The notes beneath the pieces are model-generated. The model was not told the DNA's origin. It made no database searches and saw only the letters and a program-made list of their open reading frames with translations. From Mustelus asterias (Eukaryota): DNA of 64,000 nt. The stretch lies in NCBI RefSeq assembly GCF_964213995.1, contig NW_027590119.1, positions 2,108,001 through 2,172,000 of the forward strand. The letters are read 5' to 3'. Shown here piece by piece: positions 9,354-41,477 of the stretch (the stretch's first letter is position 1; each line of letters opens with the position of its first letter). A program made the translations under genes and the position numbers.

Positions 9354-10280
9354 TCACTCGTGAACTTGTTGATGTCTCAGCAGCTGGGATGAAACTCTGA
9401 ATCCCTTCCCACACTGAGAGCAGGTGAACGGCCTCTCCCCAGTGTGAACTCGCTGGTGTGTCTGTAGGTCAGATGAGTTTGTGAATCCCTTCCCACACTG
9501 AGAGCAGATGAATGGTCTCTCCCCAGTGTGGACTCGCTGGTGTATCCTCAGGTGGGATGACCGAATGAATCCCTTCCCACACTGAGAGCAGGTGAACGGT
9601 CTCTCCCCAGTGTGAACTCGCTGGTGTCTCTGCAGGTGGGATGATCGAGTGAATCCCTCCCCACATTGAGAGCAGGTAAATGGTCTCTCCCCAGTGTGAA
9701 CTCGCTGGTGTGACTGCAGGTTGGATGACCAAGTGAATCCCTCCCCACACTGAGAGCAGGTGAATGGCCTCTCCCCAGTGTGAACTCGCTGGTGTGTCTG
9801 CAGGCTGGATAACTGAGTGAATCCCTTCCCACACTGAGAGCAGATGAACGGCCTCTCTCCAGTGTGAACTCGCTGGTGTCTCTGCAGGCTGGATAACTCA
9901 ATGAATCCCTTCCCACACTGAGAGCAGGTGAACGGCCTCTCCCCAGTGTGAACTCGCTGGTGTGTCTGCAGACTGGATAACTGAGTGAATCCCTTCCCAC
10001 ACTGAGAGCAGGTGAATGGCCTCTCCCCAGTGTGAACTCGCTGGTGTGTCCGCAGGTGGGATAACCGAGTAAATCCCTTCCCACACTGAGAGCAGGTGTA
10101 TGGCCTCTCCCCAGTGTGAACTCGCTGGTGTGTCCGTAAGCTGGATAACTGATTAAATCCCTTCTCACACTGAGAGCAGGTGAATGGCCTCTCCCCAGTG
10201 TGGCTGCGCCGATGAACTTCCAGCTCTGATGGGGCTCTGTATCTCTTCCCACAGTCCACACATTTCCATGGTTTCTCCAT
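9354..10280 (-). CDS. C2H2 zinc-finger protein, 11 tandem fingers, no KRAB or other effector domain in the ORF
   Basis: Begins MEKPWKC at the ATG at 10280; eleven CxxC-12-HxxxH units with TGERPF linkers. Confidence 0.88.
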
Positions 10281-10994
10281 GATGCAGGTGTCCTTGCCTC
10301 TCTCTTGGGTGGACAATTAGTTGAAACTTCGTCCACACACAGAACAAGATTACAGTCTCGACCCGCTGTGAATGGTGTGATATTTATTCAGACTGTGTAA
10401 CTGGTTAAAGCTCTTTAGTCAGTGCAGTGGAACACACTCACTCAAGTGTGGCAGAGTGTTGATGCTTTTTCACTCACACTGACATTTCAAATCTTTTCAA
10501 ATCGACAGACTGGACAATCATTTCTCCTCCTGGATTCAAAGTTCGATGATATTGAGATCCCAAGGGATATGACTCTGTCACGTCTAGACGTGATGTTTGA
10601 GATTTCGGCCTGTGATTCCTCAAGATCCTGTAAAATGAGTTTCCAAAAGTCATCAGTGTCAGTGCAGGATAGAAATTCAGAACAGACAATTTCTATGGAA
10701 CATTCTTTCCTCTCTCATTCCCCAAAAGCTGTAAATCTCCATCCCACACACTCTCTCCCCATTCTCAGCAGGTCTGGCAGCATCTGTATGGAGAGAAAAG
10801 AACTGATGTTTCAGAGCTTTGACAAAGGGTCATCTTGACAAGAAACATCAGCTCTTTTCTCTCCTTACAAATGCTGCTAGAACTGCTGAGATTTTCCAGC
10901 ATTTTCTCTCTTGGTTTCAGATTCCAGCATCCGCAGTAATTTGCTTTTATAAGGCTGCAGATACCTCCTCCCAAGTAACATGCGTGTGCCCAAG

Positions 10995-12028
10995 ACATCA
11001 TCACTTGTTTCCCTTATTTCTTTAGCACCCATGGTGCTCTCCGCAGTAAACACAGAGGAGAAGTATTCATTAAAAATCTTACCCATCTCCTGTGGCTCCA
11101 CACACAGATGGCCATACTGATTTTTAAGGGGATCTATTCTCTCTCTAGCCACCCTTTTACTCTTAATATAGCTATAGAACCTCTTGGAATTTTCTTTAAT
11201 CTTACCTGCCAGATCCATATCATACCCTCTTTTTGTCCTCCTGATTTCCCTCCTCAGTATTTTCTTACACTTTTTATAGTCAGAGTGATTCACTTGTCCC
11301 CGATTGCCGAAACCCAATGTATGCTTCCTTCTTTTACCTGACCAGAGCCTCAATGTCCCTTGTCTGCCAGAGATCCTTAAATTTACCATTATTTCCCTTC
11401 ACCTTAACAGGAATATACTGCCCCTGGACTCTTGATATCACACTTTTAAAACCTCCCATTTGCCAGTCATTCCTTTCCCTTCAAACAAACTCACCGAATC
11501 GACATCTGCTCGATCCTGCCTAATGCCCACAAAAGTGGCCCTGCTCCAGTTTAGGGCCTTGACCTGTGGACCTGTCCTATTTTTTTCCAGAACTATTTTG
11601 AAACTATTGGTGCTCCCAATAGTGCTCCCTGACTGACACTTCAGTCACTTGCTCCACCTCGTTTCTTAACTGTCTAATAGAAAGTGAGTCCAGGAATTGA
11701 TGATGAAAAATAAGGAGCTGGGAGATGAATTGAACAAGTATTTTGCCTCGGTCTTCACAATAGAGGATACAGTTAAAACTCAGAAACAGCTGGAAATCAG
11801 AAAACAGAAGTGTGGGATGAACTCTGAAAAAGCACAATTCCCAGGGAAGTGGTCCTCAGCAAACTGTTGGAGCTGTGGGCTGATGAGTCCTCGGGTCCTG
11901 CTGGGCTTCATTCTCGGGTCCTGCTGGGCTTCATTCTCGGGTCCTGCTGGGCTTCATTCTCGGGTCCTGCTGGGCTTCATTCTCGGGTCTGAACAGAGGG
12001 AGATAGTTGATGTTGTTCAATTTTCTTA
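10995..12028. mobile_element. Degraded CR1-type LINE fragments in both orientations (mirrored at 39291-40300)
   Basis: IKENSKRFYSYIKSKR...NEYFSSVFT on the minus strand; ELNKYFASVFT on the plus strand. Confidence 0.75.
11891..11989 (+). repeat. 23-bp tandem repeat, about 4 copies (single copy in the right arm near 39331-39360)
   Basis: TCGGGTCCTGCTGGGCTTCATTC repeated. Confidence 0.9.
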
Positions 12029-12029
12029 A

Positions 12030-12300
12030 CCGTCCGTCGCCATTACCCTCACTGCGCATGCTTCAGGTCCCGCCCCTCATTCACTCCGATTGGTTGGAGG
12101 ACCAGCCGCTCCCGCTCGGTCATCCAGCCCCGCCCCCTCTTCCTATTGGCCTGGAGCTGCCGTCAATCAGTCCCGGGGCATTGTGACGTGGAGCATGCGC
12201 AGTGTCATTGCTGTCCTTGGCGCTTGTTTGTCCCGGAGAAGCGGAGTCAGCGTTAGGCGGTGGCTGGGAGGATTTGGAAACACTTTGTGGATCCGCAAAC
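12030..12300. promoter_or_regulatory. CpG-rich promoter-like region (mirrored at 36270-36520)
   Basis: NRF1-like TGCGCATGC/GCATGCGCA, GC boxes CCGCCCC, inverted CCAAT (ATTGG), TGACGT. Confidence 0.55.
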
Positions 12301-14558
12301 CCTTCAGAATCATTGTCAGCTCCCTGGTTTGCAGCTGCGGGGCTTCTCCCTCCCTCCCTCCCGGGAACAGGCCCAGGTTAACGGCCCCATCCTGGCTCAG
12401 CCACTGGAGGATGGTTCACATCAGAGGATGGGGGAGGGGGACAATAAATAAGAGGTTACACTTTGGCCTCAAATCAATGAGGACTCTGATCTCTGGGAAG
12501 GAAGGAAACCCTGGGAGGTGGGCGGGGAGGATTCACAAACACCCGCTGGAGGTCCCAACACACCCAATAAGAAGCTGCAGCTCCCTGCAGTGACCGGGAA
12601 AGAAAATAATTGATTTTATTTTCACTCTGTACAAAAGAGAATTGAACCCATCCAGAATAGAGGGTGGGAGAAAAGATTTGTGAAGATATTTCACACTGGG
12701 TTTGCCAGGCTGACCAACTCTCTGAGAAAATGAAAGGACATCCTTCATGAGTCTGTCGAAGCAGGTGAGCAGTATTGTGTGCGGTGCTGCTGGAACTGTG
12801 TGGGTGGACAGGGGCTGGTTGGCAGCCAGAACAGTTGGAAGAGGGTGCTGCACAGATCCATCTTATGGGTGAAACAGCGCCCATACGCCATGCAGCCTGG
12901 CACACTGGAGTCATGGGACAATCCATTGAAATATGAGCTGGTTGGTCAGTGTGGGAGTTGGTTGCAGGACAGGGAGGAGGGAAAGTGTTCAGGATGAGGA
13001 TTTACTGCTGCACAGGAACAAGTGAGGAAACGATGTTCCACAGAACATAGTTTCAAATTCCAGCATCCGCAGTAATTTGCTTTGATTCCAAATAAACTTA
13101 TTGGACTTTAACCTGGTGTTCTGAGACTTCTTACTGTGCAAACTCCAGAGAGACAGTCACCCACCGCTGGAATCGAACCCAGACTCAGTGAGGCAGCAGT
13201 GCTAACCACTGTGCCACAGTGAAGGGAGTTTGCCGCAAATTTCGGGTGATAACAATGGGCTGGATGTTGCTCAGAATGTGGAGCACTGCAGCAAAGTACA
13301 GAGAGACAGAGCAGCAAACTGGACTGAGAAATGGAGTCTGCAGACTGGAACTGGCAGCATGAGGAGAGGTTATTTAGTCTAACACTCACAGCAATCTACA
13401 ACCCACCCCCATTACCGAGACAGTGAGACAGAGATTACAAACACTCACCAACACAGCTCCACTGAAACGTCCCAGGAAAAAGGGGGAATCTGTGGCAGTT
13501 CCTGTCCTGAAATAGCCCCAGGACTGTCACTCAAATCCCCAACCCGGCCCAGTTCACAGCTCAGCCTCTCAGCTTGCAGCTTCCTGCACCTTGAGCCAAC
13601 CCTGTCCAGGTGTGGGAGGGATGTGGAACCCCAGAGTGGGGGGAGGGGTGACCTCCTGCTGTGTCCCAAATAGTTTCTCCTTCCCCTCCCCCTTGGCGCT
13701 CGAAGGTCTCAATGTGGATGTGTTGATGGACATTGCAGAGCCTAACTGAGCTGCGCCTGTCCCTTATCCTGGGTCAACCCCTCCCCTTGGGTTCAGTGTG
13801 TTCAGTTCGCTGCTTCTTTCCCTGCTGAACCTTCAGTTAATCAAAAACAGAAAGTGCTGGAAAACCTCAGCAGGTCTGGTCGCATCTGTGATCATCCAGA
13901 CTGGAAGCATGAACTCCATTCTCTCTCCACAGATGCTGTCAGACCTGCTTTGATTTTCCAGCATTTTCTGTTTAAGATTCCAGCATCCGCAGTGTTTTGC
14001 TTTTATCTTCATTTAAACAAGCTATTGTCCCTGACTCCCACATTAACTGTCATTCCTTCCCTTTATCCCGCTCACATCCCGCTCGAAACTCATACTCAGA
14101 GTTTTACCGCCATCTCCCCCTCCCCCAGCTCCCACATCCCAACACCCGGAATCTCTAACCCAGCGGTTCCAGTTTGTCTGGTTTGAGTTCAGATTTGCCG
14201 CAGCACCGACAGGATTTCACTTCAAACCAGCCGGAACTGACTGCTCACAAATCCCAAAATGTTTCTCCAGCAGCCCGGGCTTGTTAATGTTGTTTAAAGT
14301 CAGCGCCCAAATGCAGTTACTCTCCTCAGTTTAAAAAACTTCTCCGTTTAATCCAAAGTATTATTCGCACCAGACATAAACACAAAATTGTGAACGTTAC
14401 CCCCCGCCCCCCCAACCAGACCCGAGCTGGGGTGTCCTGAGTAAGAGACATCTGTTTCGGGTGTGACAATTCTTACACATTCTCTGGTTGACATAAAACG
14501 GAAAACGCTGGAAATTGCCCCCATTACCGAGACAGTGAGACAGAGATTACAAACACTC

Positions 14559-17500
14559 TTTTTTTTATTTCAAAAATATACTTTATTCACAAAAAAAACT
14601 CTCCAATAAAACATTGCAAAATGACAGATCCAAAAGTCATAAACAGTGCAAAAAAGAATCATTTTTACAGTACAATACAGTGCTTATTGACAAAACATTA
14701 CATTCATTACATTTCATTACTTAAAACTATGTACATACATCAGAGTTTACTGTGTGCCGTTATTTATCAGGTTGGCACACAGTTACGCAGGCCGAGGGTA
14801 TTCTGCAGTTACCCGGCCCTCGGTCTGCCTCGGTTGAGACGCTTTACACGGTGGCCTTTCCCCATTGTGCCTTGGCGGCGGCTGCCCCAAGCTTGAGCGC
14901 GTCCCTGAGCACAGAGTCCTGGACCTTGGAATGTGCCAGTCTGCAACACTCGGTCGAGGACAATTCTTTCAGCTGGAAGATCAGCAAGTTTCGGGCGCAC
15001 CAAAGCACGTCCTCCACCGAGTTGATGACCCTCCAGCAGCAGTTGATATTTGTCTCGGTGTGCGTCCCCGGAAACAGCCCGTAGAGCACAGAGTCCTGCG
15101 TCACCGAGCTGCCCGGGACGAACCGCGACAAATACCACTGCACCTCACTCCAGACCTTCTTTGCAAAGGCACATTCCACAAGGAGGTGTGCGACCGTCTC
15201 ATCACCCCCGCAGCCGCTTCGAGAGCAGAGTGCGGTGAGGTTGAGACCCCGGGCGTGCATAAAGGATCTGACGGGGAGTGCCCTTCTCACCACCAGCCAA
15301 GCCAGGTCTTGGTGCTTGTTTGTGAGTTCTGGTGATGAGGCATTCTGCCAAATGACATTGACAGTCCGCTCAGGGAACCATCCGACAGGATCTGCCATCT
15401 CCTTTTCTCTCAGGGCCTCAAGGACATTACGTGCTGACCACTGCTTGATAGCCATGTGATCAAAGGTGTGTTTCCGGAAGAATTTCTCCACGAAGGACAG
15501 GTGCTGCGGTACGGTCCAACTACTTGGAGCGTTCCGCGGCAATGTGGCCAGACCCATCCTCCGCAACACTTGGGACAGGTAGAACCTCAAAAAATAGTAG
15601 CACTTGCTGTTACTGTACCGAGGATCTACACACAGCTTGATGCAGCCGCACACAAAGGTGGCCATCAGGATGAGGGCGGCGTTGGGAACGTTTTTCCCTT
15701 CATTCTCTGGAGATTTGTGCATCGCCTCCCTCCGGACACGATCCATCTTTGATCTCCAGATGAACTTAAAGATGGCCCGGGTCACTGCTGCTGCGCAGGA
15801 CTTGGGGAGAGGCCACACCTGCGCCACGTACAACAACACGGACAGAACCTCGCATTGGATCACAAGGTTCTTCCCAGTGATGGAGAGGGAGCGTTGCTCC
15901 CACAATCCCAATTTTTGTCTGGCTTTGGCGATGCGCTCCTCCCAGTTTCTGGCGCATGCCCCTGCCGCTCTGAACCATATCCCCAGCACCTTGAGGTAGT
16001 CTGCCCTAATGGTGAAGGGGATAAAGGATGTGTCAGGCCAGTTCCCAAAGAACATGGCCTCACTCTTACCCTGGTTGACTTTGGCCCCCGAGGCCAGCTC
16101 GAACTGCTCACAGACTCGGAGGAGCCTGCGAACAGACGAGGGGTCCGAGCAGAAAACAGCCAAGTCATCCATGTAGAGGGAGGCTTTAACTTGCGTCCCT
16201 CCGCTGCCTGGGATTGTAACCCCTTTGATGCCTGGGTCGCTTCTGAGGGCCTCGGCAAAGGGTTCAATGCAACACACAAAAAGGACGGAGGAGAGAGGGC
16301 AGCCCTGCCTGACTCCAGACCTGATTTGAAACATATCTGATTCCCACCCATTGATTGAAACTGCGCTACTGATGTCTGTGTAGAGCAGTTGGATCCAAAT
16401 GCGGATTCCCTCCCCAAAGCCCATTTTGGAGAGCACATCCATCATGTAGCTGTGCGATATTCTGTCAAACGCCTTCTCCTGGTCTAGACTGATGAGGCAG
16501 GTGTCCACCTGCCTGTCCTGCACGTTCGGCGATCGTATCCCTGAGTAGCGCGAGGCTATCAGAGATCTTCCTGCCGGGTACAGCACAGGTTTGATCAGGA
16601 TGGATCACTGACCCCAGAGCAGACTTGACCCGGTTGGTGATGACCTTGGCCAGAATCTTGTAATCCACATTCAATAGTGAAATAGGTCTCCAATTTCTAA
16701 TTTCTTCCCATTCCCCCTTCTGCTTGTAGATGAGGGTAATGATGCCTTTCCTCATGGATTCTGACATGCTGCCTTCCAGAAGCATACTCTCGTATACTTC
16801 CAGGAGGTCCGGGCCCGTCAAGTCCCACAACGCCGAGTAAAGCTCAGCCGGTAAGCCGTCGCTACCGGGAGTTTTACCCTTCTGAAGGGACTCGACTGCC
16901 TTTGTCAGCTCATCCAGAGCTACCGGTCTGTCCAGGCTCTCCCGCTCGCCGTCGTCCAAGACTTGCGTGATAGACGACAGGAAAGACTGGGAGGCCGTGC
17001 TGTCTGTTGGCTTCAGGTCATACAGTCCGGCATAGAAGGATTTGCAAATCCTCAGGATGTCAGACTGCGATGACCTTACAGAGCCATCTTCTTCCTTCAG
17101 GCTTGTGATCACAGAGGTTTCTCTGTGCACCTCCTGGAAGAAGAAACGCGAGCACGTTTCGTCCTGCTCCACAGAGCGGACCCTGGACCGGAAGATAACC
17201 TTGGAGGCCTCCGAGGCAAAGAGCGAGGCTTGCTGGCTCTTCACCTCCCGGAGGTCCTCCTTGACATCCACCCCCATCGACTGCAGTTGGAGTAGCTCCT
17301 GCATGCTTTTCTGGAGTCGGGACATTTCCCTCCGTCTCTCCCTGGCCTTCTGAACCCCTTTTCGGATAAAGAATCTCTTGATGTTGCCCTTGATGGTTTC
17401 CCACCAGAGCGATGGAGACTCAAAGAAGGGTTTCACGGTTCTCCAACCGTGGTAAACCCTCTTGAGTTCCTCGAGGTTCTCTGGGGTCAACAGTTCTACA

Positions 17501-17677
17501 TTAAGCTTCCAGGACCCCCTGCCCACTTTCTGGTTTTCCTCCAGCTGACAGTCTGCCAGCAGGAGGCAGTGGTCAGAGAAGAACACCGGCTTGACGTCGG
17601 TGGACCTGACCGTGAGCGCGCGGGATGCAAACATGAAGTCGATCCTGGAGCGGACAGACCCGTCTGGCCGCGACCCC
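14559..17677 (-). mobile_element. Tx1-clade non-LTR retrotransposon, 5'-truncated ORF2 with one frameshift
   Basis: APE C-terminus (SRIDF...FFSDH), RT (KTPGSDGLP, WRPISLLNVDYK, SLDQEKAFD, RQGCPLS, YMDD) and a C-terminal zinc motif (CSRSGCGGDETVAHLLVEC); frameshift near 16525; AATAAA and poly(A) at the 3' end. Confidence 0.93.
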
Positions 17678-17820
17678 TTTGGTAGCAAATACCATAAGCT
17701 TTCGGAGCACAGCTCCTTCGTCAGATGGAGTGGAACCTGAGTAAACCTGTTGGACTTTAACCTGGTGTTGTGAGACTTCTTACTGTGCTTACCCCAGTCC
17801 AACGCCGGCATCTCCACATC
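17678..17820. mobile_element. Penelope-derived element, family A, abutting the Tx1 5' end
   Basis: Same terminus as other family A copies (...CCAGTCCAACGCCGGCATCTCCACATC). Confidence 0.8.
17692..17728 (-). ncRNA. Minimal type I hammerhead ribozyme motif (PLE type)
   Basis: Minus strand: CCAT-CTGACGA-A-GGAGC-TGT-GCTCC-GAAA-GCTT-ATGG; complete catalytic core, 5-bp stem II, 4-bp stem I and loopless palindromic stem III. Confidence 0.75.
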
Positions 17821-18249
17821 AGAGCAATAACCAGGGTCAGGAACATTTTCACCCCCATGGTTCCAATCTGAGCTCCAGAATTAGGGAGGGTGATCTCTGT
17901 CTGAACGGGACCTGGAATGTGAGAAATTGAAAGAATTAGCAAGGTGTGATGCGATTGGCTGGGATTTATTTTCCTCGCCCATTTTTATATCTGCAAAAAG
18001 TCACTCTGCAGAAGGCGACTGTGATGTTTGATAAGTGATCAGAGCGCGCCCTCCCGTGGACAGTACCAGCGCATTGGAAACAGATGCAGAACGAAGAGCC
18101 CAGATATGTACAGTCTGAGAAATATAAAAACCCAGAAATATCTAGTACAGGTACAACACGGACAAGAGGAAATATCCGCTCCACATGCACACCATTAATA
18201 CCCCTTCGGGTTTTAAGGCTTTAAGAAAGTTATCTCTCAATCTCCGAAA

Positions 18250-19660: not shown

Positions 19661-20223
19661 GTAGGTGTGAATGGCCAAACGGCAGAGAAGCTGAAATCAG
19701 AGGGTAAGCTGTGACAGATGAAGATAAGGGGGGAGGAGGGAGATTGGTGGGAGAGAGGTAAAATTGGTGGGAGAGAGGTGAAAACGGGGAGAAAGGGAAG
19801 CAAAGGTGGAGAAAAGATAAGGAAAGGGGAAAGAATAGGAGGCGGATAAGAAAGACAATACAGGAATAAAAGGAAGAGAACAGTTAAAAAATTAATAAAA
19901 TTAACCGACTTCCTGTTCTCACTCCGCCTTACAGGTTGAAGCGATTAAATGGACAAGTTTGGGTCTCATCCCTTTCCAGGTCCCCGAGGGGGGAACAAAC
20001 TCCTTAGTTTATTTCTCCCGACGCTGAGAGCCAAGGGAGCCGTGCGCTGATTGGGTCATTTGAAGACAATGGAATTCTAAGGTTGGATGTCAGTGAATGA
20101 TGGTGTCAGGAATGAACCAATCAACAACGGCCCGGATGTAACTCAACTTCTCACCCGCTCTTGACAATTAAAATGTTAACTTCAACCCTCTCTGCTCACA
20201 TCCCGCTCGACCTCTCTGCAAAC

Positions 20224-21155: not shown

Positions 21156-21229
21156 CTCAAAACCTCACTCAACATGAACAGGATAAACAGGAGTCCCAAG
21201 ATAAACAGGAGTTGGGACGGTGAGAATAG

Positions 21230-21301
21230 TGGTTCCACCGAGATTCGGACTCAGACTGCTGGATTGAAAGTCCAACGTGCTCACCGTTACATCATGAAAC
21301 C
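21230..21301 (-). pseudogene. tRNA-Gln-derived pseudogene whose anticodon reads TTC
   Basis: Reverse complement is 72 nt, GGTTTCATGATGTAACGGTGAGCACGTTGGACTTTCAATCCAGCAGTCTGAGTCCGAATCTCGGTGGAACCA, colinear with vertebrate tRNA-Gln; anticodon loop CT-TTC-AA; T loop degenerate. Confidence 0.75.
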
Positions 21302-21604
21302 AACAGGCGCCGGTATAAGGCAGGAGGTCTTTCACTCAGATCTCACACATACACATTCTTGGTCAATAAGGGCTGTTGCTGTTTGACACCAACTGCTCCT
21401 TTCTATCGACAGAGCGTTAAAGAGGAGCGAAAATGAAAAAGAGAAACACTGATGTTGCAGGCATCTGTCGACAGAGGCCCAGCAATGTGCATTGTAATAG
21501 CAGTGGAATAGGCTGGCAAATTGTCCTCTCGATTCGCACTTGGTGAAAACTTTAAGCGGAATGTCCTTCAGCAAAGCAATCATCGGCATTGACAAAGAAA
21601 GGCA

Positions 21605-21676
21605 AGGTCCTGCGGAGATTTGAACTCAGATCGCTGGATTCAAAGTCAAGAGTAATACCCATTACACCACAGAACC
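21605..21676 (-). tRNA. tRNA-Gln(TTG)-like gene, probably a pseudogene
   Basis: Reverse complement is 72 nt, GGTTCTGTGGTGTAATGGGTATTACTCTTGACTTTGAATCCAGCGATCTGAGTTCAAATCTCCGCAGGACCT; acceptor stem pairs and B box GTTCAAATC is intact; mismatches in the D, anticodon and T stems. Confidence 0.75.
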
Positions 21677-21877
21677 CAGAAAATCGCAAACAGATGCAAA
21701 TGACTTATGAAACACAACTACTTCTGCTGATATCTCCCGGTACGGCTTGCGAAGGAAATGATTTGCTATAGATTTGGAGGGCTGTGTTGTTCACTGGATT
21801 TACTACAATAAAGTTTATAAAATGTCTATCTCTTTGATGAAGCACAGGCGACAAACTGTCAGGACTGCTCCTCTATA

Positions 21878-28500: not shown

Positions 28501-28595
28501 GACAAGGATGAGGGGGGTGCAGATTTAAGGTTTTGGGTCAGAGATGCAGGGGGGTCGTGAGGAAGAATATTTTGGTGCAGCGAATGGTAATGATC

Positions 28596-29302: not shown

Positions 29303-30145
29303 TCACTCGTGAACTTGTTGGTGTCTCAGCAGCTGGGATGAAACTGTGAATCCCGTCCCACACTGAGAGCAGGTGAATGGTCTGTCCCCAGTGTGAACTC
29401 GCTGGTGTCTCAGCAGGACGGATGACCAAGTGAACCTCTTCTCACACACAGAGCAGGTGAACGGCCTCTCCCCAGTGTGAACGCGCTTATGTGCCCGCAG
29501 GTTGGATGACCGAGTGAATCCCTTCCCACACTGAGAGCAGGTGAATGGCCTCATCCCAGTGTGAACTCGCTGGTGTGTCCGCAGATTGGATGAATGACTG
29601 AATCCCTTCTCACACTGAGAGCAGGTGAATGGCCTCTCACCAGAGTGAAGTCGCTGGTGTGTCTGAAGGTTGGATAACCGACTGAACCCCTTCCCACACT
29701 GAGAGCAGGTGAATGGTCTCTCCCCTGTGTGAACTCGCTGATGCGTCTGCAGGTGACATAACTGACTGAACCCCTTCCCACACTGAGAGCAGGTGAACGG
29801 CCTTTCACCAGAGTGAAGTCGTCGGTGTGTCTGAAGATTGGATAACCGACTGAATCCCTTCCCACACTGAGAGCAGGTGAAGGGCCTCTCCCCAGTGTGA
29901 ACTCGTTGGTGTGTCTGCAGGGTGCATGACTGAGTGAATCCCTTCCCACACTGAGAGCAGGTGAAGGGCCTCTCCCCAGTGTGAACTCGCTGGTGTATCT
30001 GCAGCTGGAATAACCGAGTGAATCCCTCCCCACACTGAGAGCAGGTGAATGGTCTCTCCCCAGTGTGACTGCGCCGATGAGCTTCCAGCTCTGATGGGGA
30101 TCTGTATCTCTTCCCACAGTTCCCACATTTCCATGGTTTCTCCAT
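29303..30145 (-). CDS. C2H2 zinc-finger protein, 10 fingers (paralog of 9354-10280)
   Basis: ATG of MEKPWKC at 30145; ten fingers; 5' and 3' flanks homologous to those of the 9.3-10.3 kb gene. Confidence 0.88.
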
Positions 30146-31199
30146 GGTGCAGGTGTCCTTGCCTCTGTCTTGGGTGGACAATCAGTTGAAGCCTTGCCCA
30201 CACACAGAACACGGGTACCGTCTCTCCCCGCTGTGAATGTTGTGATATTTATTCAGGCTGTGTAACTGGTTAAAGCTCTTCAGTCAGTGCATTGGAACAC
30301 TCTCACTCGAGTGTGGCAGTGTGTTGGTGCTTTTCCAGTCACACTGATATTTGAACTCTTTTCAACAGACTGGACAATTGTTTCTCCTTCTAGATTCAAG
30401 GGCCGATGATATTCAGCTCCCAAGGCATATGACTCTGTCAGATCCAGACGTGACGTTTGAAATTTCGGCCTGTGATTCCTCTTTCAGTATCCTGTAAAAC
30501 AAGTTTACAGAGATCATCAGTGTCAGTGCAGGATAGAAATTCAGAACACACAATTCTAGTTTCTATGGAACATTCTTTCCTCTCTCCAGACTCGAAACAT
30601 TGGCTCTATTCTCTCTCTATCTGGGGGATAGCGTGGGAAATGATGCTGAGGTAGATCAGCCAATTCTCAATGAATGGTTGAGGCAGTTCGATGGGCTGAA
30701 TGGCCAACTGCAGCTCCTGTTTCTTATGATTTGTGTGTGGTGGACAGGAAGCAGTGAGCATGGATCTGTCAATCAGCCTCAATCAGCACCTTCAGGAGAA
30801 TTGGGAGGGTGAATATTAGATACAGCAGAGTGAGAATGGAGGGAGAGTGTGTGGGATGGAGATTTACAGCTTTTGGGGAACGAGAGAGGAAAGAATGTTC
30901 ATTAGAATCACAGAATTCTTACATCTTATCAACTGTTTTTGAGCCTTCACAATGAATCTCTTTTCTCAAGACACTCTTATCTCTGACTTGTCTGTGCTGC
31001 TGGCAGTCTCACAAAGCAGCTGCCTGTGTGTTGATATGAGGGGCCCTGCGCGGCAAGTTTAATGCTCCATGACTGTGTCTTTAATGACTGAATAACTATA
31101 GGAATATGGTCAAGTCAGCTAAATCCCATGATGCTTTATATTACGGTTAGCAACTGTCCATTTTGTTAACACAGCACATTTGGATCTATAAATACATAT

Positions 31200-31380
31200 A
31201 AAGGCAAAATATTGCGGATGCTGGAATCTGAAACAAAAACAGAAAGTGCTGGAAAATGTCAGCAGGTCTGACAGCATCTGTGGAGAGAGAGTAGAGCCAA
31301 CATTTAAAGTCTGGATGACCCTTCATCAGAGTTCTGACAAAGGGTCACCCAGACTCAAAATGTTAGTCTATTCTCTCTCT
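31200..31380. mobile_element. Palindromic PLE-like element, family B (other copies near 10763-10949, 13843-14005, 27365-27530, 40298-40485)
   Basis: GCAAAATATTGCGGATGCTGGAATCTGAAAC... terminus; inverted centre with degenerate CTGATGAAGGGTCATCCAGACT(C)GAAACG cores. Confidence 0.65.
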
Positions 31381-32649
31381 ATAAATATATATAGGACAGC
31401 TGCCTCAGCCTTGGCCCACTCTCACACATGCACGGAGCAGTGCTGACTATGTGGAAATGCTCAGATTAAAGTTTCCTGCCTTCTCTTTAACAGCTCGTGA
31501 AAATGTTTATCGGCTTGCAGACCTTCAAAGGAGTCAGTGTCTGCTAGTTCAGCATGAACAGGCTAATCTTCACCTGCGTAGGCCCCATAACATTCTGCTT
31601 TTCGGCCTTCACCAGAGGGTGAGCAAGACCAGATTTCTCCATAACAAATACCAAAGGTGAGATATGGGGATATGCTATGCAAATAAAAGATTAGCAGAAG
31701 TCAATTTTGAATGCGAAAGGGTGAAAAGCGAGGATTTAATTGGCGAATGTGTCCATCAATGAAGGATTAGAAACATTCCTGGTTTCTGATTTGCTGTAAT
31801 TGACTATTATTGCCAAGTTATTTTTCTGTAACATCAGAACCACTTGCGGGACAGCTGCACAGGGTTTCTCCTTGTGCACAAGTTATTAAAGGCCCCACAT
31901 TGGATTATGCGTGGTGTCCAGTGCTGTTTGTACTCAAGTCGACTAAGAATGCCTAAAGGTACTGGTACCCAGGATCTCTGACAACTCTCCCTAACCGGAT
32001 CTTGATTATCCAAAGGTTGGCCAGAATCCTCTCCAGTAACTTACCCGCCACTGTTGTCAGGCTCATCGGCCTGTAATTACCAGGCTTCTCTTTGCTGCCC
32101 TTCGTAAACAACGGAACAACATTAGCCACACTCTAGTCTTCCAGAACTTTGCCAGTGGAAAGGGATGAAGCAAATGCCTCTGCAAGGCCCTCTGCAATTT
32201 CATCCCCAAGTTCCCCAAACTCCCACAAGATCCAAGGATGCACTTGATTTGATTTATTATTGTCATATGTACTAGTATACAGTGAAAAGAATTGTTTCTT
32301 GCACACTATCAAGACAAAGCATACAGTTCATAGAGAAGGAAAGGAGAGGGTGCAGGATGTAGTGTTATAGTCATAGCTCAGGTGGACAGAAAGATCAACT
32401 TAGTGCGAGGTAGGTCCATTCAAAAGTCTGACGGCAACAGAGAAGAAGCTGTTCTTGAGTTGGTTGGTATGTGAGCTCAGACTTCTGTTTCATTTCCCCA
32501 ATGGAAAAAGGTGGAAGTGTGAATGTCCGGAGTGTGCGGGTTGATTATGCTGGCTGCTTTTCCGAGGCAGCCGGATGTGTACACAGAGTCAATGGATGGG
32601 AGGCAGGTTTGCGCAATGGACTGGGCTTCATTCACAATCCTTTGAGAAA

Positions 32650-33110
32650 TCCGTTGTTGAGAAAAGCATGGATGTTAGGGAACTTGGGGAAATGAATAGT
32701 GATGTCTTGAGGAGTGCACATGTAACCAGAGAAGGAGGTGCTGGAAGTCGTAAAGTGCATCAAGGGAGATAAATCCCTGGGACCTGATGAAGTGTATCCC
32801 AGGACATTGTGGAAGGCTAGGGTGGAAATTGTGGGTCCCCTAGCAGAGATATTTGAATCATCGATAGTCACAGGTGAGGTGCCTGAAGATTGGAGGGTGG
32901 CAAATGTTGTGCCTTTGTTTAAGAAGGGCTGCATGGAAAAGCCTGGGAACTACAGGCCAGTGGGTGAGCCTCACATCTGTAGTGGCTAAGTTGCTCGAAG
33001 GTATTTTGAGAGACAGGATCTACAGGCATTTAGAGACGCAAGGACTGATTAGGGACAGCATGGCTTTGTGAGTGGAAAATCATGTCTCACAAATTTGATT
33101 GAGTTTTTTA
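32650..33110 (+). mobile_element. CR1-type LINE fragment
   Basis: DKSLGPDEVYPRTL...[16 protein letters not shown]...NYRPV. Confidence 0.8.
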
Positions 33111-34049
33111 GAACATCGAGTTTCAGGTCATTACCATTCGCTGCATCAGAATATTAGTATTGTTTCTGAAAATTTCATGCATTCCCTCTTGACTTGACAG
33201 GACAGCCTCATCTATTCATTACCAACTTGAGTTTCGCTAAATCCCTGTCTCAGCTGAGGTTTCTAGAACTTTCATTCATTCCTTTATTTTTTTTAGACTT
33301 GACTGTCAGCGTCCCTCATTTAACCCATGAAAAACTTTGGTGTATATAAACCCCTGTCCTCTGCATCAAGTCCCACACACTCACCTATCACCATGTCCTC
33401 ACCATGGGGCTGCAGTGGTTAGCATTGCTGCCTCACAGTGGGTTCAATTCATGGCTTGGGTGACTGTGTGTGTGGAGTCTGCACGTTCTCCCCATGTCTG
33501 CATGGGTTTCCTCCCACAGTCAGAAAGGCTTGCTGGTTAGGTGCATTGACCCGAACAAGTGCTGGAGTGTGACAACTAGGGGAATTTTACAGCAACTTGC
33601 AGTGTTAATATAGGCTAAGCCTACTTGTGATACTAATAAATAAACTTTAAAACACTGACCCACACAGGCTCCCGGTTAAACAACTCAATTTAAAACATTG
33701 CATCTTTTTTTGCAAATCCTTCCATGACATTATTGTTTCCTATTTCCAGTCACACAGATGTTTGAATCTTTTTCTACAGAGACACTTACAATCAGGTTCT
33801 GATGAATGGAGTGACTCTGGCAGGTTTTGGTCTGATGTCTGGTTTGAGTTTCCCTTCAAATTTTGTCGTCAAATTTCCTGTAAAAAAAGATCATCACTGT
33901 CAGTCAAGAATAGAAATTAAGCGAGAAACATTTCTCTTGGGTTGAGTTTTGTGTGTGTAAATCCTCCCCTTCTAACTCCCTGTAAAAGGAGTTTCCAAAG
34001 TCCATCCCTGTCAGTCCAGGAGAGACATTCACAACATTCTCTCCTCCTG

Positions 34050-34345
34050 CTGACAGGGAGCACCGCGCATGCGCACTATTGCCCATCGCCCCGAGAAAGA
34101 TGGTCTCCGTCAACTCGGGGCCTCCAAATCAGGCATCTGCGGTCGCGGCCCCGAATGAGAGGAACGCGGCACTGAACAGTTATTATTCTGGTTTTCCTGT
34201 CTCCACTGGGTGCTTATGAAGCCTCTCCACCCACCCCGCCGCCTCCATTACCCTCCAGAGTAAGCCGTTTCCCTGGAAACCCGGAGCCGATAATAACCAC
34301 CTTGCTGCTACTGCGGCAGCAACATCCACTGCGCATGCGCAATGT
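34050..34345. promoter_or_regulatory. CpG-rich promoter-like region with NRF1-type motifs next to a ZNF 5' remnant (about 33745-34050, minus strand)
   Basis: GCGCATGCGCA near 34065 and TGCGCATGCGCA at 34330; adjacent sequence resembles the ZNF 5' UTR/acceptor region. Confidence 0.5.
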
Positions 34346-34482
34346 CTATTGAGCGGCTGGATCATATTCTGAATCACTGTGAATGCTGGGTAAGATAGCC
34401 ACCATTGAAGTATGTTATTGCATTAAAAAAAATCATGTTTTGTGATTCAATTACGACTGAAGCCAAAGCACCAAGGTATAAA

Positions 34483-34813
34483 ATGGTGCAGTGGTTAGCA
34501 CTGCTGCTTCACAGCTTCAGGGTCCCGGGTTCGATTCCCAGCTCGGGTCACTGTCTGTGTGGAGTTTGCACATTCTCCTCGTGTCTGCGTGAGTTTCCTC
34601 CGGGTGCTCCGGTTTCCTCCCACAGTCCAAAGATGTGCAGGTTAGCTTGATTGGCCAGGTTAAAAATTGCCCCTTAGAATCCTGGGATGCGTAGGTTGGA
34701 GGGATTAGTGGGTAAATATGTGGGGGTAGGGCCTGGGTGGGATTGTGGTCAGTGCAGACTCGATGGGCCGAATGGCCTCCTTCTGCACTGTGGGGTTTCT
34801 ATGATTTCTATGA
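34483..34813 (+). mobile_element. HE1-type SINE (further copies or fragments near 2587-2781, 13140-13220, 25630-25912, 33405-33650, 35325-35632, 36955-37250, 51205-51410, 63553-63750)
   Basis: Same head, core and tail motifs as the 28596-28942 copy. Confidence 0.85.
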
Positions 34814-34866
34814 TGAAAATGAAAATAACTAATATAGCAGCTAGCTCCGTCCTGAGTTTAATTAAT

Positions 34867-34999
34867 GTAAGAAGTCTCACAACACCAGGTTAAAGTCCAA
34901 CAGGTTTATTTGGTAGCAAATAAACCTGTTGGACTTTAACCTGGTGTTGTGAGACTTCTTACGGTGCTTACCCCAGTCCAACGCCGGCATCTCCACATC
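34867..34999. mobile_element. Penelope-derived palindromic insertion, family A
   Basis: Perfect 46-bp inverted repeat 34867-34912 / 34917-34962 with a 4-nt loop; TSD TGAGTTTAATT(A/G)AT at 34853-34866 and 35000-35013. Confidence 0.85.
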
Positions 35000-36763
35000 T
35001 GAGTTTAATTGATAGCAGAACTAACATCTACACCTGAAGATGAACTCCTTGGAGTATCAGCTGGTGTAACGAACTGATGATTTACCATCCACCCCCTCTC
35101 CACACACATACACACGCACAGACTTGACAATAAGAATGAACTCACGTTTGATCAAATCCTTTGAACTTTTAAATATGTTAACAGAACGGGAAATTGAATA
35201 AATCCATTTGCACACATAACATATCTGAATGGTCTCTTTCTGGCATGGCTGTGCTGTAAATAGGATAACTGACCACTTACATTCCAGGACTGACATTCTG
35301 CCCTGTTTCCAAGACCAATATTGAGAGGTGGTACAGTGGTTAGCACTGCTGTCTCACAGCACCAGGGACCTGGGTTCTATTCCCAGCTTGGGTCACGATC
35401 TGTGTGGAGTTTGCACGTTCTCCCTGTGTCTGCGTGGGTTTCCTCTGGGTGCTCTGGTTTCCTCCCACAGTCCAAAGATATGCGGGTGAAGTGGATTGGC
35501 CATGCTAAAAATTGTCAAGGGGACTAGCTAGGGTTAATGCATGGGGATATGGGGATAGGGCATGGGTGGGATTGTGGTCGGTCCAGACTCGATGGGCTGA
35601 ATGGCCTTCTTCTGCACTGTAGGATTTTATGTTCCTTGAAAAGGTACAAAATCGACTGCATAACTGCAAATAGTTTTATTTCCAAAACTGTATGAGAATT
35701 CCCACCTGACTCTTCATGTTATTGAGTCAAAGAAACTTTGTTAATTTTAAAAATGACCATGAATACTGCAGAGGCTTCTGCAACTCTTCCGATGTTGTTT
35801 TTTGTTAACTCAGATTTTTAATAAAGAGAATTGAGCAATCATTTGAAAGGAGAAATAATGCATGTTTTTATGAAGGGGAATGGCCCTTGTACAACTGTTT
35901 GAAAATAAGCTAGCACAGACATGATGTGTATTGTCTCCAGACAGGACAGCCACATCTCTTTAACCTGTGCTTAATGCTCCTTCCACCCACATTGTCTGTA
36001 TGGGTGTTTGTGAATCCTCCCCGCCCACCTCCCAGGGTTTCCTTCCTTCCCAGAGATCAGAATCCTCATTGATTTGAGGCCAAAGTGTAACCTCTTATTT
36101 ATTGTCCCCCTCCCCCATCCTCTGATGTGAACCATCCTCCAGTGGCTGAGCCAGGATGGGGCCGTTAACCTGGGCCTGTTCCCGGAAGGGAGGGAGGGAG
36201 AAGCCCCGCAGCTGCAAACCAGGGAGCTGACAATGATTCTGAAGGGTTTGCGGATCCACAAAGTGTTTCCAAATCCTCCCAGCCACCGCCTAACGCTGAC
36301 TCCGCTTCTCCGGGACAAACAAGCGCCAAGGACAGCAATGATACTGCGCATGCTCCACATCACAATGCCCCGGGGGACTGATTGACGCCAGCTCCGGACC
36401 AATAGGAAGAGGGGGCGGTGCTGTAGGACCGAGCGTGAGCGGCTGGTCCTCCAACCAATCGGAGTGAATGAGGGGCGGGACCTGAAGCATGCGCAGTGCG
36501 GGGAATGGCAACGGACGGACGGTTTCAACTTGGAAGCGAGATCAATACGAGGTAGAGGGCGGCGTGCGGGGAATGATAAATGTGGCGGGTGGGTGGAGAG
36601 ACTTTGTAAACATGTTGTTCAAACCCAAACCCTGGAAATGAACTTCCCGGTCCCCCACTTTGTACCAAATGGAGCGGCAGCTTGTCGTGTTAGACCCGGG
36701 CTGACTGCCGCCATTGAGGCTGCATGTGGGAGGCCGGCAGGGATTGTGATCGGAGTGAAGCCC

Positions 36764-36901
36764 TGACGTCACAATGGAATGGGTGAGGGTGTGACGTCAC
36801 AATGGAATGGGTGAGAGTGTGACGTCGCAATGGAATGGGTGAGGGTGTGACGTCACAATGGAATGGGTGAGAGTGTGAGGTCACAATGGAATGGGTGAGG
36901 G
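36764..36901 (+). repeat. 28-bp tandem repeat carrying TGACGTCA, 5 copies
   Basis: TGACGTCACAATGGAATGGGTGAG(A/G)GTG units. Confidence 0.9.
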
Positions 36902-37676
36902 TTCCAGATGAGCTGAGACTGGGCTGGAGTCGGGCGATGGCACTGACATGTGACCCGGTGGCACAGTGGTTAGTGCAGCTGCCTAACAGCGCCAGGGACC
37001 CGGGTTCAATTCCAGCCTCGGGTCGCTGTCTGTGCAGAGTTTCTACATTCTCCCCGTGTCTGTGTGGGTTTCCTCCGGGTGTTCCGGTTTCCTTCCACAG
37101 TCCAAAGATGTGCCGGTTAGACGGATTGGCCACGATAAATTGTCACTTGGTATCAGGGGGATTAACAGGTAAATATGTGGATAGGGCCTGGATGGGATTG
37201 TTGTCGGTGCAGGCTCGATGGGCTGAATGGCCACCTTCTACACTGTATTTTATTATTCATTATTGTTAATTAATTACTATTAATGCATCTATGAATGAAG
37301 GTGGTCTTGATGATGATGTGGACATGTGGCTGGAAGCTCATCTTGGGATGAACTATTTCACCCTGGTTGTGAACAGCCTGGTTCAGCCTCAGACAGTTGC
37401 CAGGAGGAGAGATAAAGTTGTTGGCGAGGGAGTGGAGTTTGTAGTGGGGACTGAACACAATGGGTTCAGTCTTTCCAGTATTTAAATGAAATAAATTTCT
37501 GTTCTTTCAGTACTGGATGTCAGACAAGTCAGGATGGTGTGAGAGTTGGAGAGGAACTTGGAGCTGATGGTGTTCACAGGGTTTGGAAATTCTGTCAAAG
37601 TTCCTGTTGAGTTGTAGATGTATAAAATCTCTCTCCTCACCTCCGGCGTCTCCTACTTCTCTCTGTTTCCACTCAG

Positions 37677-38066
37677 TGGGAGATGCCGGCGTTGGACTGG
37701 GGTAAGCACAGTAAGAAGTCTCACAACACCAGGTTAAAATCCAGCAGGTTTATTTGGTAGCATAAGCCACAGGCTTTCAGAGCACTGCCCCTTCATCAGG
37801 TGAGTGGGAGTTCTGTTCACAAACAGGGCATATAAAGACACAAACTCAATTTACAAGATAATGGTTGGAATGCGAGTCTTTACAGGTAATCAAGTCTTAA
37901 AGGTACAGACAATGTGAGTGGAGAGAGGGTTAAGCACAGGTTAAAGAGATGTGTATTGTCTCCAGCCAGGACAGTTAGTGAGATTTTGCAAGCCCAGGCA
38001 AGTCGTGGGGGATACAGATAGTGTGACGTGAACCCAAGGTCCCTGTTGAGGTCCGTCCTCATGTGT
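37677..38066 (-). mobile_element. 5'-truncated Penelope-like element: C-terminal tip of the ORF plus 3' pseudo-LTR with a hammerhead core
   Basis: THEDG/LNRDLGFTSHY resembles the GLNRDxGF C-terminus of PLE GIY-YIG domains; downstream CTGATGA-AGGGGC-AGT-GCTCT-GAAA core near 37772-37802; terminus shared with the palindromic elements. Confidence 0.75.
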
Positions 38067-38630
38067 GATTGACAGATCCATCCTCACTGCTTCCTGTCCT
38101 GGATGCAGAGAGCTGAAAATTTCCATGCAGGCTGCCAGACAGATATATGTCGACATTTTTGGAGTAACAATGTGTGGAATATACAGACCGAATTCACTCC
38201 ATTTCCTTCAGTTGCTGCAAGTCCCCAATTTCCCCCAGAATGAGAAAAGAAATGGAAAGGGGGAAACATTGATTTCCTCCCAGATGTTGCCCTCTTTTTA
38301 GGTCAAACCAAATAAACAAACTCAGATGAAGTCGGGACAAAAGAGGAGGGAGTTTCACTCTGAAGCTCATTGGACAATTTCCGCATTGTGACATCACAAT
38401 GGAGTCCTGCCTGATTCAGCCAATCGGAGTCACTCCGGTCCGCGGTGACGTCTCCGGGTTCCAGTGCGCAGGCCCGGGCGGGTGGACCTGGGAGCCCCGC
38501 CCCCACCCATTGTTCCCCTCCCCCTACACCACATCGAGCCAAGCTTTCCAGGCAACCGGCTGACAGTTTCGGCCAGAGCGAGAAGCCGCTCCGTGATCTT
38601 CCCCTCCCCCCGGCATGTGCGGGGTAGAGG
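38066..38630 (+). repeat. Direct-orientation paralog of the 195-685 ZNF 5'/promoter block
   Basis: TGATTGACAGATCCAT... and CCAGTGCGCAGGCCCGGGCG...GGCCAGAGCGAGAAGCCGC are shared. Confidence 0.8.
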
Positions 38631-40970
38631 GGAAGCTGCGCATGTGCAGGGGAGAACCCACCCTCTGATCTTCATGCTGAGGTGTTGACCAATGGGAAGA
38701 GTTGGAGGACCGGAAGGACTCTGGTCTTCCAGCCAAGCAGAACGTGGGCTTTGTGTGAATGAAGATTAATCTTCAGACAGACTCAAACTTCCCAAAAAAA
38801 AGACCCTAGTAATCACATTCTCATTTGATGTTTTTAAGTTTCCTTTGTACTTTGATTTTTGTGCGGGCTGTTCCCCCTCCTTTTGGGGAGCTGCCCCTTT
38901 TACTTTGTCCTGACTTAACTTGAGTTTGTTTATTTGGTTTGACCTTAAAAGAGGCCAATAGTGAGTAAAACACTTTCTTTTCAACCCCCTTTCCATTTCT
39001 TTTCTCATTCTGGGGGAAATTGGGGACTTGCAGCAACTGAAGGGAAAGGAAGTGAATCCAGGGAATGTGCAGACTCAGGTTTCTCTCTCTCTCAAACCAG
39101 AAAATGATCCATTTCTGCCCACTGTTTGCTGTTAGCCAATCTTCTATCCACGCCAATATGTTATCCCCACAGCATGAATTTTTATTTGCTGCAATAACCT
39201 TTGATGTGGCACCTCATCAAATGTCTTCTGGAAATCTAAGTACAGCGCATCCACCGGTTTCCCTTTATCCAATTCCCGATGGGGAATTTTAGAAAATTGA
39301 ACAACACATCAACTATCTCACTCTGTTAAGACCCGAGAATGAAGCCCAGCAGGACCCGAGGACTCATCAGCCCACAGCTCCAACAGTTTGCTGAGCACCA
39401 CTTCCCTGGGAATTGTGCTTTTTCAGAGTTCATCCCACACTTCTGTTTTCTGATTTCCAGCTGTTTCTGAGTTTTAACTGTATCCTCTATTGTGAACACC
39501 GAGGCAAAATACTTGTTCAATTCATCTCCCAGCTCCTTATTTTTCATTATCAATTCCTGGACTCACTTTCTATTAGACAGTTAAGAAATGAGGTGGAGCA
39601 AGTGACTGAAGTGTCAGTCAGGGAGCACTATTGGGAGCACCAATAGTTTCAAAATAGTTCTGGAAAAAGATCGGACAGGTTCACAGGTCAAGGCCCTAAA
39701 CTGGAGCAGGGCCACTTTTGTGGGCATTAGGCAGGATCTAGCAGATGTCGATTAGGTGAGTTTGTTTGAAGGGAAAGGAATGACTGGCAAATGGGAGGTT
39801 TTAAAAGTGTGATATCAAGAGTCCAGGGGCAGTATATTCCTGTTACGATGCAGGGAAAGAATGGTAAATTTAGGGATCTCTGGCAGACAAGGGACATTGA
39901 AGCTCTGGTCAGGTAAAAGAAGGAAGCAGACATTGGGTTTAGGCAATCGGGGACAAGTGAATCACTCTGACTATAAAAAGTGTAAGAAAAAACTGAAGAG
40001 GGAAATCAGGAGGACAAAAAGAGGGGACGATATGGATCTGGCAGGTAAGATTAAAGAAAATTCCAAGAGGTTCGAGAGCTATATTAAGAGTAAAAGGGTG
40101 GCTAGAGAGAGAATAGATCCCCTTAAAAATCAGTATGGCCATCTGTGTGTGGAGCCACAGGAGATGGGTGAGATTTTTAATGAATACTTCTCCTCTGTGT
40201 TTACCGCGGAGAGCACCATGGGTGTAAAAGAAATAAGGGAAACAAGTGATGTCTTGGGCACACGCATGTTACTTGGGAGGAGGTATCTGCAGCCTTATAA
40301 AAGCAAATTACTGCGGATGCAGGAATTTGAAACCAAGAGAGAAAATGCTGGAAAATCTCAGCAGGTCTGGCAGCATCTGTAAGGAGAGAAAAGAGCTGAT
40401 GTTTCTTGTCTCGATGACCCTTTGTCAAAGCTCTGAAACATCAGTGCTTTTCTCTCCATCCAGATGCTGCCAGACCTGCTGAGAATGGGGAGAGTGTGTG
40501 TGGGATGGAGATTTACAGCTTTTGGGGAATGAGAGAGGAAAGAATGTTCCATAGAAATTGTCTGTTCTGAATTTCTATCCTGTACTGACACTGATGACTT
40601 TTGTAAACTCATTTTACAGGATATTGAAAGAGGAATCACAGGCCGAAATCTCAAACGTCACGTCTAGACGTGACAGAATCATATTCCTTGGGACCTCAAT
40701 ATCATCGGACTTTGAATCCAGAAGGAGAAATGATTGTCCAGTCTGTCAATTTGAAAAGATTTGAAATGTCAGTGTGAGTGAAAAAGCATCAACACACTGC
40801 CATACTCGAGTGAGAGTGTTCCAATGCACTGACTAAAGAGCTTTAACCAGTTACACAGCCTGAATAAATATCACACCATTCACAGCGGGTAGAGACTGTA
40901 ATCTTGTCCTGTGTGTGGACGAAGTTTCAACTGATTGTCCACCCAAGAGAGAGGCAAGGTCACCTGCACC

Positions 40971-41477
40971 ATGGAGAAACCATGGAAATGTGCGGACTGT
41001 GGGAAGAGATACAGAGCCCCATGTCTGCTGGAAGCTCATCGGCGCAGCCACACTGGGGAGAGACCATTCACCTGCTCTCAATGTGGGAAGGGATTCATTC
41101 AGTCATCCCACCTGCAGTCACACCAGCGAGTTCACACTGGAGAGAGGCCATTCACCTGCTCTCAGTGTGGGAAGGGATTCACTCAGTTATCCAGCCTGCA
41201 GACACACCAGCGAGTTCACACTGGGGAGAGGCTGTTCACCTGCTCTCAGTGTGGGAAGGGATTCACTCGGTTACCCGACCTGCGGACACACCAGCGAGTT
41301 CACACTGGGGAGAAACCATTCATCTGTTCTCAGTGTGGGAAGGGATTCACTCGGTCATCCACCCTGCTGACACATCAGCCAGTTCACACTGGGGAGACAC
41401 CATTCACCTGCTGTCAGTGTGGAAAGGGTTTCAGCGTTTCATCCCGGCTGCTGAGACACCAGCGAGTTCACGAGTGA
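40971..41477 (+). CDS. C2H2 zinc-finger protein, 6 fingers (inverted-duplicate counterpart of 9354-10280)
   Basis: ATG of MEKPWKC at 40971; six fingers; flanks are the reverse complement of those of the 11-finger gene. Confidence 0.85.

Follow-up and report, generated by a model that had tools for sequence, protein, structure and literature searches.

A 64,000-nucleotide (nt) stretch of the genome of the shark Mustelus asterias (assembly GCF_964213995.1, contig NW_027590119.1, forward-strand positions 2,108,001 to 2,172,000), hereafter the window, carries three zinc-finger (ZNF) genes, A, B and C, whose predicted products consist of C2H2 fingers only. Genes A and B are the two copies of an inverted duplication, and their arrays have since gained, lost and exchanged 84-bp finger units (about 88% alike) in the manner of a coding minisatellite, with an unlike first finger anchoring the array. 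The finger framework is under purifying selection, with a ratio of nonsynonymous to synonymous rates (dN/dS) of about 0.25, and constraint is lifted at the DNA-contact positions, mainly -1, 3 and 6; positive selection at these contacts (dN/dS of about 2) is likely, becoming borderline once the mutability of CpG dinucleotides is modelled. Altogether, we consider it probable that A, B and C represent a finger-only C2H2 family evolving by birth-and-death, with unit shuffling and contact-site selection. Shuffling does most of the work here, with a moderate contribution from selection on the contact residues.

Structure of Genes A, B and C

The three genes (Table 1) gave Pfam zf-C2H2 scores of 237 (A), 123 (B) and 201.5 (C) bits, and each encodes at least four 28-amino-acid (aa) units with linkers of the HTGE(K/R)P type, which places them among tandem C2H2 genes. 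The finger counts of 11, 6 and 10, respectively, proposed in an earlier sequence-only reading of the window, together with all the recognition helices quoted there, were recovered in the open reading frames, as was the internal duplication proposed for C, where fingers 4 and 6 both carry the helix RLSNLQT, are 4 of 69 nt apart and have private linker variants. The ATG of each gene lies in a strong context immediately 5' of an atypical first finger, which differs from the inner units at 28–39 of 69 nt, whereas the first fingers of the three genes differ from one another at just 5–8 positions.

Inverted Duplication and Divergence of Its Arms

Gene A and pseudogene D on one side and gene B and pseudogene D' on the other constitute the inverted duplication (about 1052–12544 versus 36002–49594), which had been correctly recognised in the earlier reading. 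Because a global alignment of the two arms misplaced the arrays and non-homologous inserts, regions were scored separately. Outside the arrays the arms differ at 254 of 7333 aligned bases (3.5%), a count that omits poorly aligned and arm-specific stretches. An assembly artefact was ruled out as the source of the duplication, the arms being inverted, 3.5% apart and provided with different insertions. A CR1-type insertion is absent from the right arm and is therefore younger than the duplication. The locus thus offers a dated pair, set by the 3.5% flank divergence, with built-in neutral repeat controls.

Linkers, untranslated regions (UTRs) and the neighbouring pseudogene pair had all been described as differing little. 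This is true of D and D' (24 of 951 nt), but the UTRs adjoining the arrays differ between A and B at 34 of 582 bases (5.8%), compared with 220 of 6751 (3.3%) in the distal flanks (p=0.003), and three of the five B linkers (TGERL, TGEKP, TGETP) depart from the TGERP of all 10 A linkers. The first and last fingers of A and B, whose orthology is secure, differ at 15 of 168 nt (8.9%), which exceeds the flank rate (p=0.0008); the excess over the adjoining UTRs is not significant (p=0.16).

Unit Shuffling in the Arrays

Inner units are 12–17% apart. Units of A and B are no further apart (11.7%) than units of A are among themselves (12.1%), which dates the unit pool to before the duplication. With B2–B5 matched in order to the four best A units, 29 of 336 nt differ (8.6%); three register-preserving switches between A units reduce this to 19 of 336 (5.7%) and six switches to 15 of 336, whereas rebuilding the B inner array from C units with equal switch penalties leaves 30–33 of 336. 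The proposal that the arrays diverge far faster than their flanks is therefore overstated: the excess is approximately 2.5-fold for units compared in order and smaller once three switches are allowed. Unit B3 is nearly identical to A4 (2 of 84 nt) and represents A4 or A6 almost unchanged, and B4 corresponds to A3 apart from new residues at positions 2 and 3. Unit B2 resembles a mosaic of A9 and A7 and lies nearer to A5, A6 and A7 (8 of 84 nt each) than to A2, so that one of the four helix pairs quoted in the earlier reading, A2/B2, does not hold as a best match.

The last finger of A, A11, is 3 nt from C10 but 8 nt from its own duplicate B6, with four of the eight differences synonymous (p=0.002 against the flank rate), and codons 8–9 of B6 match inner fingers. 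This pattern, contrary to the flank relationship, suggests gene conversion in B. Among pairs of informative sites, 155 of 325 are incompatible with a single tree; however, a distance-based recombination test was not significant (p=0.5–0.7), and recurrent mutation could therefore explain part of the incompatibility. Most of the array change is unequal crossover and gene conversion among 84-bp units.

Non-coding repeats of the same arms turned over as well: the 18/19-bp minisatellite was parsed into 28 and 26 units in the two arms, with a different order of variants, and the 23-bp repeat changed in copy number. The difference in finger number therefore needs no selection. The D/D' pair is a weak control, since its units are 29% apart, compared with 12–17% in the live arrays, and recombine less easily.

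Probable Selection at DNA-Contact Positions

Selection tests were based on the 21 inner units, with the six first and last fingers left out, and on contact positions -1, 2, 3 and 6. The pairwise proportion of nonsynonymous differences (pN) was 0.37 at contacts and 0.049 outside the helix, and the synonymous proportion (pS) over all codons was 0.215. Parsimony on a tree of the units placed 32 amino-acid-changing steps on 8.4 contact sites versus 23 on 43.9 framework sites (p=1e-12), so that contact residues change about 7-fold faster per site than the framework; position 3 received 12 amino-acid-changing and 3 synonymous steps, and position 6 received 8 and 1. Contact dN/dS by parsimony was 1.7–2.1 (p from 0.002 to 0.03). 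Codon-model likelihood gave 2.05–2.3 for contacts and 0.24–0.28 for the framework (test of the contact value against 1, p=0.001–0.004). The contact-position diversification anticipated in the sequence-only reading, for which it had proposed aligning the 84-bp units and computing dN/dS, is thus supported, at about 2.1–2.3 for contacts versus about 0.25 for the framework. In finger 1, five of the seven differences between A and B fall within the 12 contact-codon bases (p=0.0002).

We also calculated the share of amino-acid diversity located at contacts, a statistic taken from PMC5519329 and applied here to positions -1, 2, 3 and 6 by our own choice. It was 0.42, 0.37 and 0.36 without the first finger and 0.31–0.34 with all fingers, compared with a median of 0.26 for 104 named ZNF proteins of mixed species, 2–6 of which lie above these genes, and with 0.33–1.0, mostly at least 0.45, for complete PRDM9.

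The most serious alternative is neutral minisatellite turnover with relaxed contact sites, in which the 84-bp units mispair, selection keeps only the fold and the frame without any arms race, and contact residues are free to drift, a process aided by CpG codons at positions -1 and 5. The changes in the non-coding repeats of the same duplication, both in the order of the 18/19-bp units and in the 23-bp copies, would be expected in this case; the residual divergence of the B inner array is on a par with that of the UTRs (5.7% and 5.8%); and the residues R, Q and W at position -1, encoded by CGG, CAG and TGG, are one CpG transition apart. When contact sites were simulated as neutral, with 120 replicates for each setting and block recombination at three levels, p-values ranged from 0 to 0.017 without a CpG effect but from 0.025 to 0.058 with a 6-fold CpG rate. 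These latter values weigh against positive selection, as do a tree-free count giving a contact dN/dS of only 1.5–1.85 (p=0.04–0.20) and the warning of Baker et al. (PMC5519329) that conversion among fingers violates the assumptions of dN/dS models. On the other hand, the common codons at positions 3 and 6, where the excess of amino-acid-changing steps was found, contain no CpG, all four likelihood fits reject a contact dN/dS of 1 with a fitted within-codon CpG multiplier of merely 0.9–1.3, and the CGA codon at position 9 is retained in 19 of the 21 inner units. Neutral turnover is unlikely in our view, although it deserves serious weight.

It could also be proposed that B is a decaying copy, and that the contrast with A reflects the loss of five fingers and relaxed selection rather than a new specificity. 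Such decay would fit the assignment of 11 of the 14 copy-specific end-finger changes to B (p=0.004 against the UTRs), the unusual changes in its framework, as well as its three altered linkers, the substitutions R to P at position 9 and S to P at position 2 and the family pseudogenes nearby; the first two of these observations likewise count against the reading favoured here. However, the frame of B is intact and retains all 24 zinc ligands. Some of its oddities, the PCLLE helix, FTCCQC and TGETP, recur in the named ray and shark relatives P0091 and P0121 and may therefore derive from the family pool, and A by itself (pN of 0.36 versus pS of 0.20) and C by itself (0.40 versus 0.26) show the contact excess as well. 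We consider decay of B a doubtful explanation.

Upstream Segments, Promoters and Search for Effector Domains

In all three genes, about 350 bases 3' of a likely splice acceptor look like former coding sequence with finger remnants, and peptides resembling this decayed segment are coding in the gene models of Heterodontus and Cetorhinus (P0122, P0128). One stop, 12 codons 5' of the ATG, is common to A, B and C; since the frame is closed there, no upstream box could be joined through the main acceptor, although one might be joined through a cryptic acceptor located in the 12 codons that precede the ATG. A search of 127 upstream open frames of at least 30 aa for KRAB (threshold E<=0.05), SET, SSXRD, SCAN and BTB domains returned no matches, and neither PR/SET, SSXRD nor KRAB matched upstream of or within the A, B and C proteins, in agreement with the earlier remark that no effector domain is visible. 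Apart from finger and reverse-transcriptase remnants, other Pfam matches in the upstream frames fell below the cut-off and were taken as chance.

Transcription of A, B and C would start in the putative promoters, the CpG-rich regions listed in Table 1. About 2.8 kb at 36518–39290, just 3' of the promoter-like region of B, is missing from the left arm (at 12030). The two genes may therefore have different first exons and be regulated differently.

Relatives of the Family

Whole-protein homolog searches were dominated by long generic ZNFs, and the 50%-cluster representatives matched were long multi-finger proteins, which were not used. Exact matches for four proteins of the window were sought in the protein collection, and none were found. 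The first 42 aa of A gave 12 matches, six of them named shark proteins with 49–86% identity and one a named bony fish protein; the closest named relatives are from Mustelus (86%), Pristiophorus (71%) and Heterodontus (69%). Neither KRAB (PF01352) nor SCAN (PF02023) is listed for the closest named shark relatives. The first-finger type of A, B and C is also carried by the ray proteins P0091 and P0101. Chondrichthyan proteins designated as ZNF239-, ZFP2- or ZNF530-like (P0067, P0121, P0122, P0123, P0126 and P0128), names that are similarity labels, have the MEKPWKC-type first finger and the inner finger style of A, B and C, and P0126 additionally shows the 3' UTR of these genes read in another frame; they differ in the inner helices, and some models keep the upstream segment coding. 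Judged by these sequence likenesses, A, B and C belong to a shark and ray finger-only ZNF family that starts at a conserved atypical MEKPWKC-type first finger. This chondrichthyan MEKPWKC-type ZNF family is a grouping defined in this analysis rather than a named family.

Genomic Neighbourhood

Table 1. Coordinates of the ZNF genes and other features of the window.
Feature	Position	Strand	Description
Gene A coding sequence	9354..10280	-	308 aa; 11 tandem C2H2 fingers; ATG directly before atypical first finger
Gene B coding sequence	40971..41477	+	168 aa; 6 fingers; copy of A in inverted orientation; inner fingers mosaic, built of A-type units
Gene C coding sequence	29303..30145	-	280 aa with 10 fingers; older paralog, its UTRs 7-12% away from those of A/B; fingers 4 and 6 duplicated internally
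Left arm of inverted segmental duplication	1052..12544	.	Arm-specific insertions at ~2587-2806 and 4519-5709
Right arm of inverted segmental duplication	36002..49594	.	
ZNF pseudogene D	3100..4420	+	ZNF family of A/B/C; frameshifts and stops; units 29% apart
ZNF pseudogene D'	46440..47780	-	Duplicate of D, ~2.5% divergence
Decayed segment of A	10281..10627	-	Putative 5' UTR after putative splice acceptor; finger remnants; 10 in-frame stops
Decayed segment of B	40620..40970	+	Counterpart of A segment; 10 in-frame stops
Decayed segment of C	30146..30491	-	Counterpart of A segment; 4 in-frame stops; weak zf-H2C2_2 match, E 1e-4
Promoter-like CpG-rich region of A	12030..12544	-	GC box, CCAAT and GCGCATG-type motifs; putative promoter
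Promoter-like region of B	36002..36518	+	Copy of A region; 14/515 differences
Promoter-like CpG-rich region of C	33950..34400	-	Two GCGCATGCGC palindromes
CR1-type insertion	4519-5828		Left arm only; 403-aa open frame
18/19-bp minisatellite (control)	1133..1669	+	Non-coding; partner at 49002-49515, variant order different
23-bp tandem repeat (control)	11890..11989	.	4 copies in A arm, 1 copy in B arm
TCR alpha/delta-like V segment	20810-21155	+	23-bp-spacer recombination signal
TCR alpha/delta-like V segment	21878-22190	-	23-bp-spacer recombination signal
TCR alpha/delta-like V segment	53184-53518	+	23-bp-spacer recombination signal
TCR alpha/delta-like V segment	~57430-57745	+	23-bp-spacer recombination signal
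Broken V-like remnant	55812-56204	-	

The left edge of the window (1–1000) is probably a sixth family member, placed head-to-head with pseudogene D: within 1–264 and 197–1000, minus-strand sequence resembling the intron 5' of the ZNF exon lies beside a CpG-rich region. A 75%-identical copy of that CpG-rich region is located at 38066–38611, upstream of B.

Two of the four T-cell receptor (TCR) V segments sit between the duplication arms, and the segments occur in both orientations. For two of the four, comparison with solved structures gave TCR alpha/delta chains as the match; among named proteins, the one most similar to a V segment is from Heterodontus (64%). The Heterodontus ZNF member P0122 and the V-segment match P0133 are both listed on a contig of 59,489,666 bases, which hints at a conserved ZNF–TCR linkage, the accessions being unconfirmed. 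A role of the arrays as PRDM9-like determinants of recombination, or as regulators linked to the V segments around them, is very improbable: high unit homogeneity, raised contact diversity (only 2–6 of the 104 named ZNF proteins are higher) and the interleaving of arrays with V segments bearing recombination signals would fit, but no SET, SSXRD or KRAB match lies upstream, the contact statistic of 0.31–0.42 compares with at least 0.45 for most complete PRDM9, and multiple ZNF copies are also described, in the portion of PMC10751288 available, around shark major histocompatibility complex (MHC) class Ia-like genes, so the neighbourhood may simply be duplication-prone.

Two tRNA-like genes, called Glu-TTC and Gln-TTG (21229–21301 and 21604–21677, minus strand), lie between the facing V segments. 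Reading frames of long interspersed nuclear elements (LINEs) with RVT_1 matches, which we take to be of CR1 and Tx1 types, are present in the window; a long LINE frame at 14844–17880 (minus strand), in two overlapping pieces of 471 and 586 aa with RVT_1 and zf-RVT matches, is probably young, since it is CpG-rich. A single-exon reading frame for a rhodopsin-family seven-transmembrane receptor occupies 61536–62561 (minus strand), and an assembly gap of 140 N (58124–58263) lies outside the ZNF finding.

Proposed Mode of Action

The following scheme could be proposed for the shuffled and selected arrays. A large cartilaginous-fish family of finger-only C2H2 genes would multiply by segmental duplication, each gene being transcribed from a CpG-island promoter and translated from the ATG before finger 1. 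The product would be a small protein that binds DNA; unit shuffling would renew its specificity, and selection on contact residues would sort the outcome. Its targets may be fast-changing repeats or transposons; this weaker part of the scheme takes KRAB-ZNFs and FiNZ-ZNFs as its analogues and draws also on the link between ZNF and retroelement numbers across species. Bound targets would be blocked directly, or a co-repressor would be recruited via the conserved acidic first finger, which would then stand in for a KRAB or FiNZ box. The conservation of finger 1 and its acidic helix suggest such a role as a protein dock; finger 1 of B, changed at three contact positions, weakens this idea, although the variant helix of B also occurs in a ray protein.

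One could speculate further that, in addition to KRAB-ZNFs and FiNZ-ZNFs, a third vertebrate system of transposon surveillance exists in sharks and rays, built of finger-only genes that lost their N-terminal coding region, with the acidic, conserved first finger as co-repressor dock and PRDM9-like shuffling of homogenised units from a family-wide pool. We hold this extension to be improbable; if true, the system would comprise hundreds to thousands of finger-only genes. The question matters because cartilaginous fish have large ZNF repertoires and yet KRAB-box families are reportedly lost or absent there, and it bears on how repression without a known box could work.

Comparison with Known Systems

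According to the supplement of Wells et al. 2023 (PMC10547256), seven assemblies of sharks and rays contain 703–3586 ZNF open reading frames, and the catshark, with up to 3586, has one of the larger repertoires counted; the sections of that article considered here also report that ZNF and retroelement numbers are linked across species and that predicted motifs agree with measured ones for only 11 of 236 human proteins. KRAB-box families are enriched among those lost in cartilaginous fish and are reported as lost or absent there in the relevant part of PMC8455134. The available portion of PMC2667407 holds nothing specific to the shark ZNF family, and a literature search, with most subscription papers outside its scope, found no published study of it.

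The zebrafish FiNZ-ZNF genes, as described in the same sections of PMC10547256, resemble A, B and C in being a lineage-specific non-KRAB tandem expansion, clustered close to immune genes, in which the residues contacting bases have a dN/dS above 1 within clades of recent paralogs, the same mode as here; transposon repression has been shown for them. However, FiNZ is a cyprinid-specific acidic box of 28 aa on its own upstream exon, whereas here the frame is closed 12 codons 5' of the ATG; this closed frame and the shark relatives argue against a FiNZ identity. Tetrapod KRAB zinc-finger genes likewise carry their fingers on a single final exon, joined by TGERP-type linkers, and have undergone cluster duplication, gains and losses of fingers and diversification of contact residues, with pseudogenes nearby, but A, B and C lack a KRAB match, and their within-array aa identity of 0.70–0.76 compares with a median of 0.58 for the 104 named ZNF proteins. 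The PRDM9 minisatellite, as characterised in the consulted part of Baker et al. 2017 (PMC5519329), shares homogenised 84-bp units, an unlike first finger and contact-focused variation; unlike PRDM9, A, B and C have no KRAB-SSXRD-SET, belong to a multigene family instead of one or a few loci and show a weaker concentration of variation at contact sites. The family itself is large and little studied, and its evolutionary mode is one already known from mammals and zebrafish.

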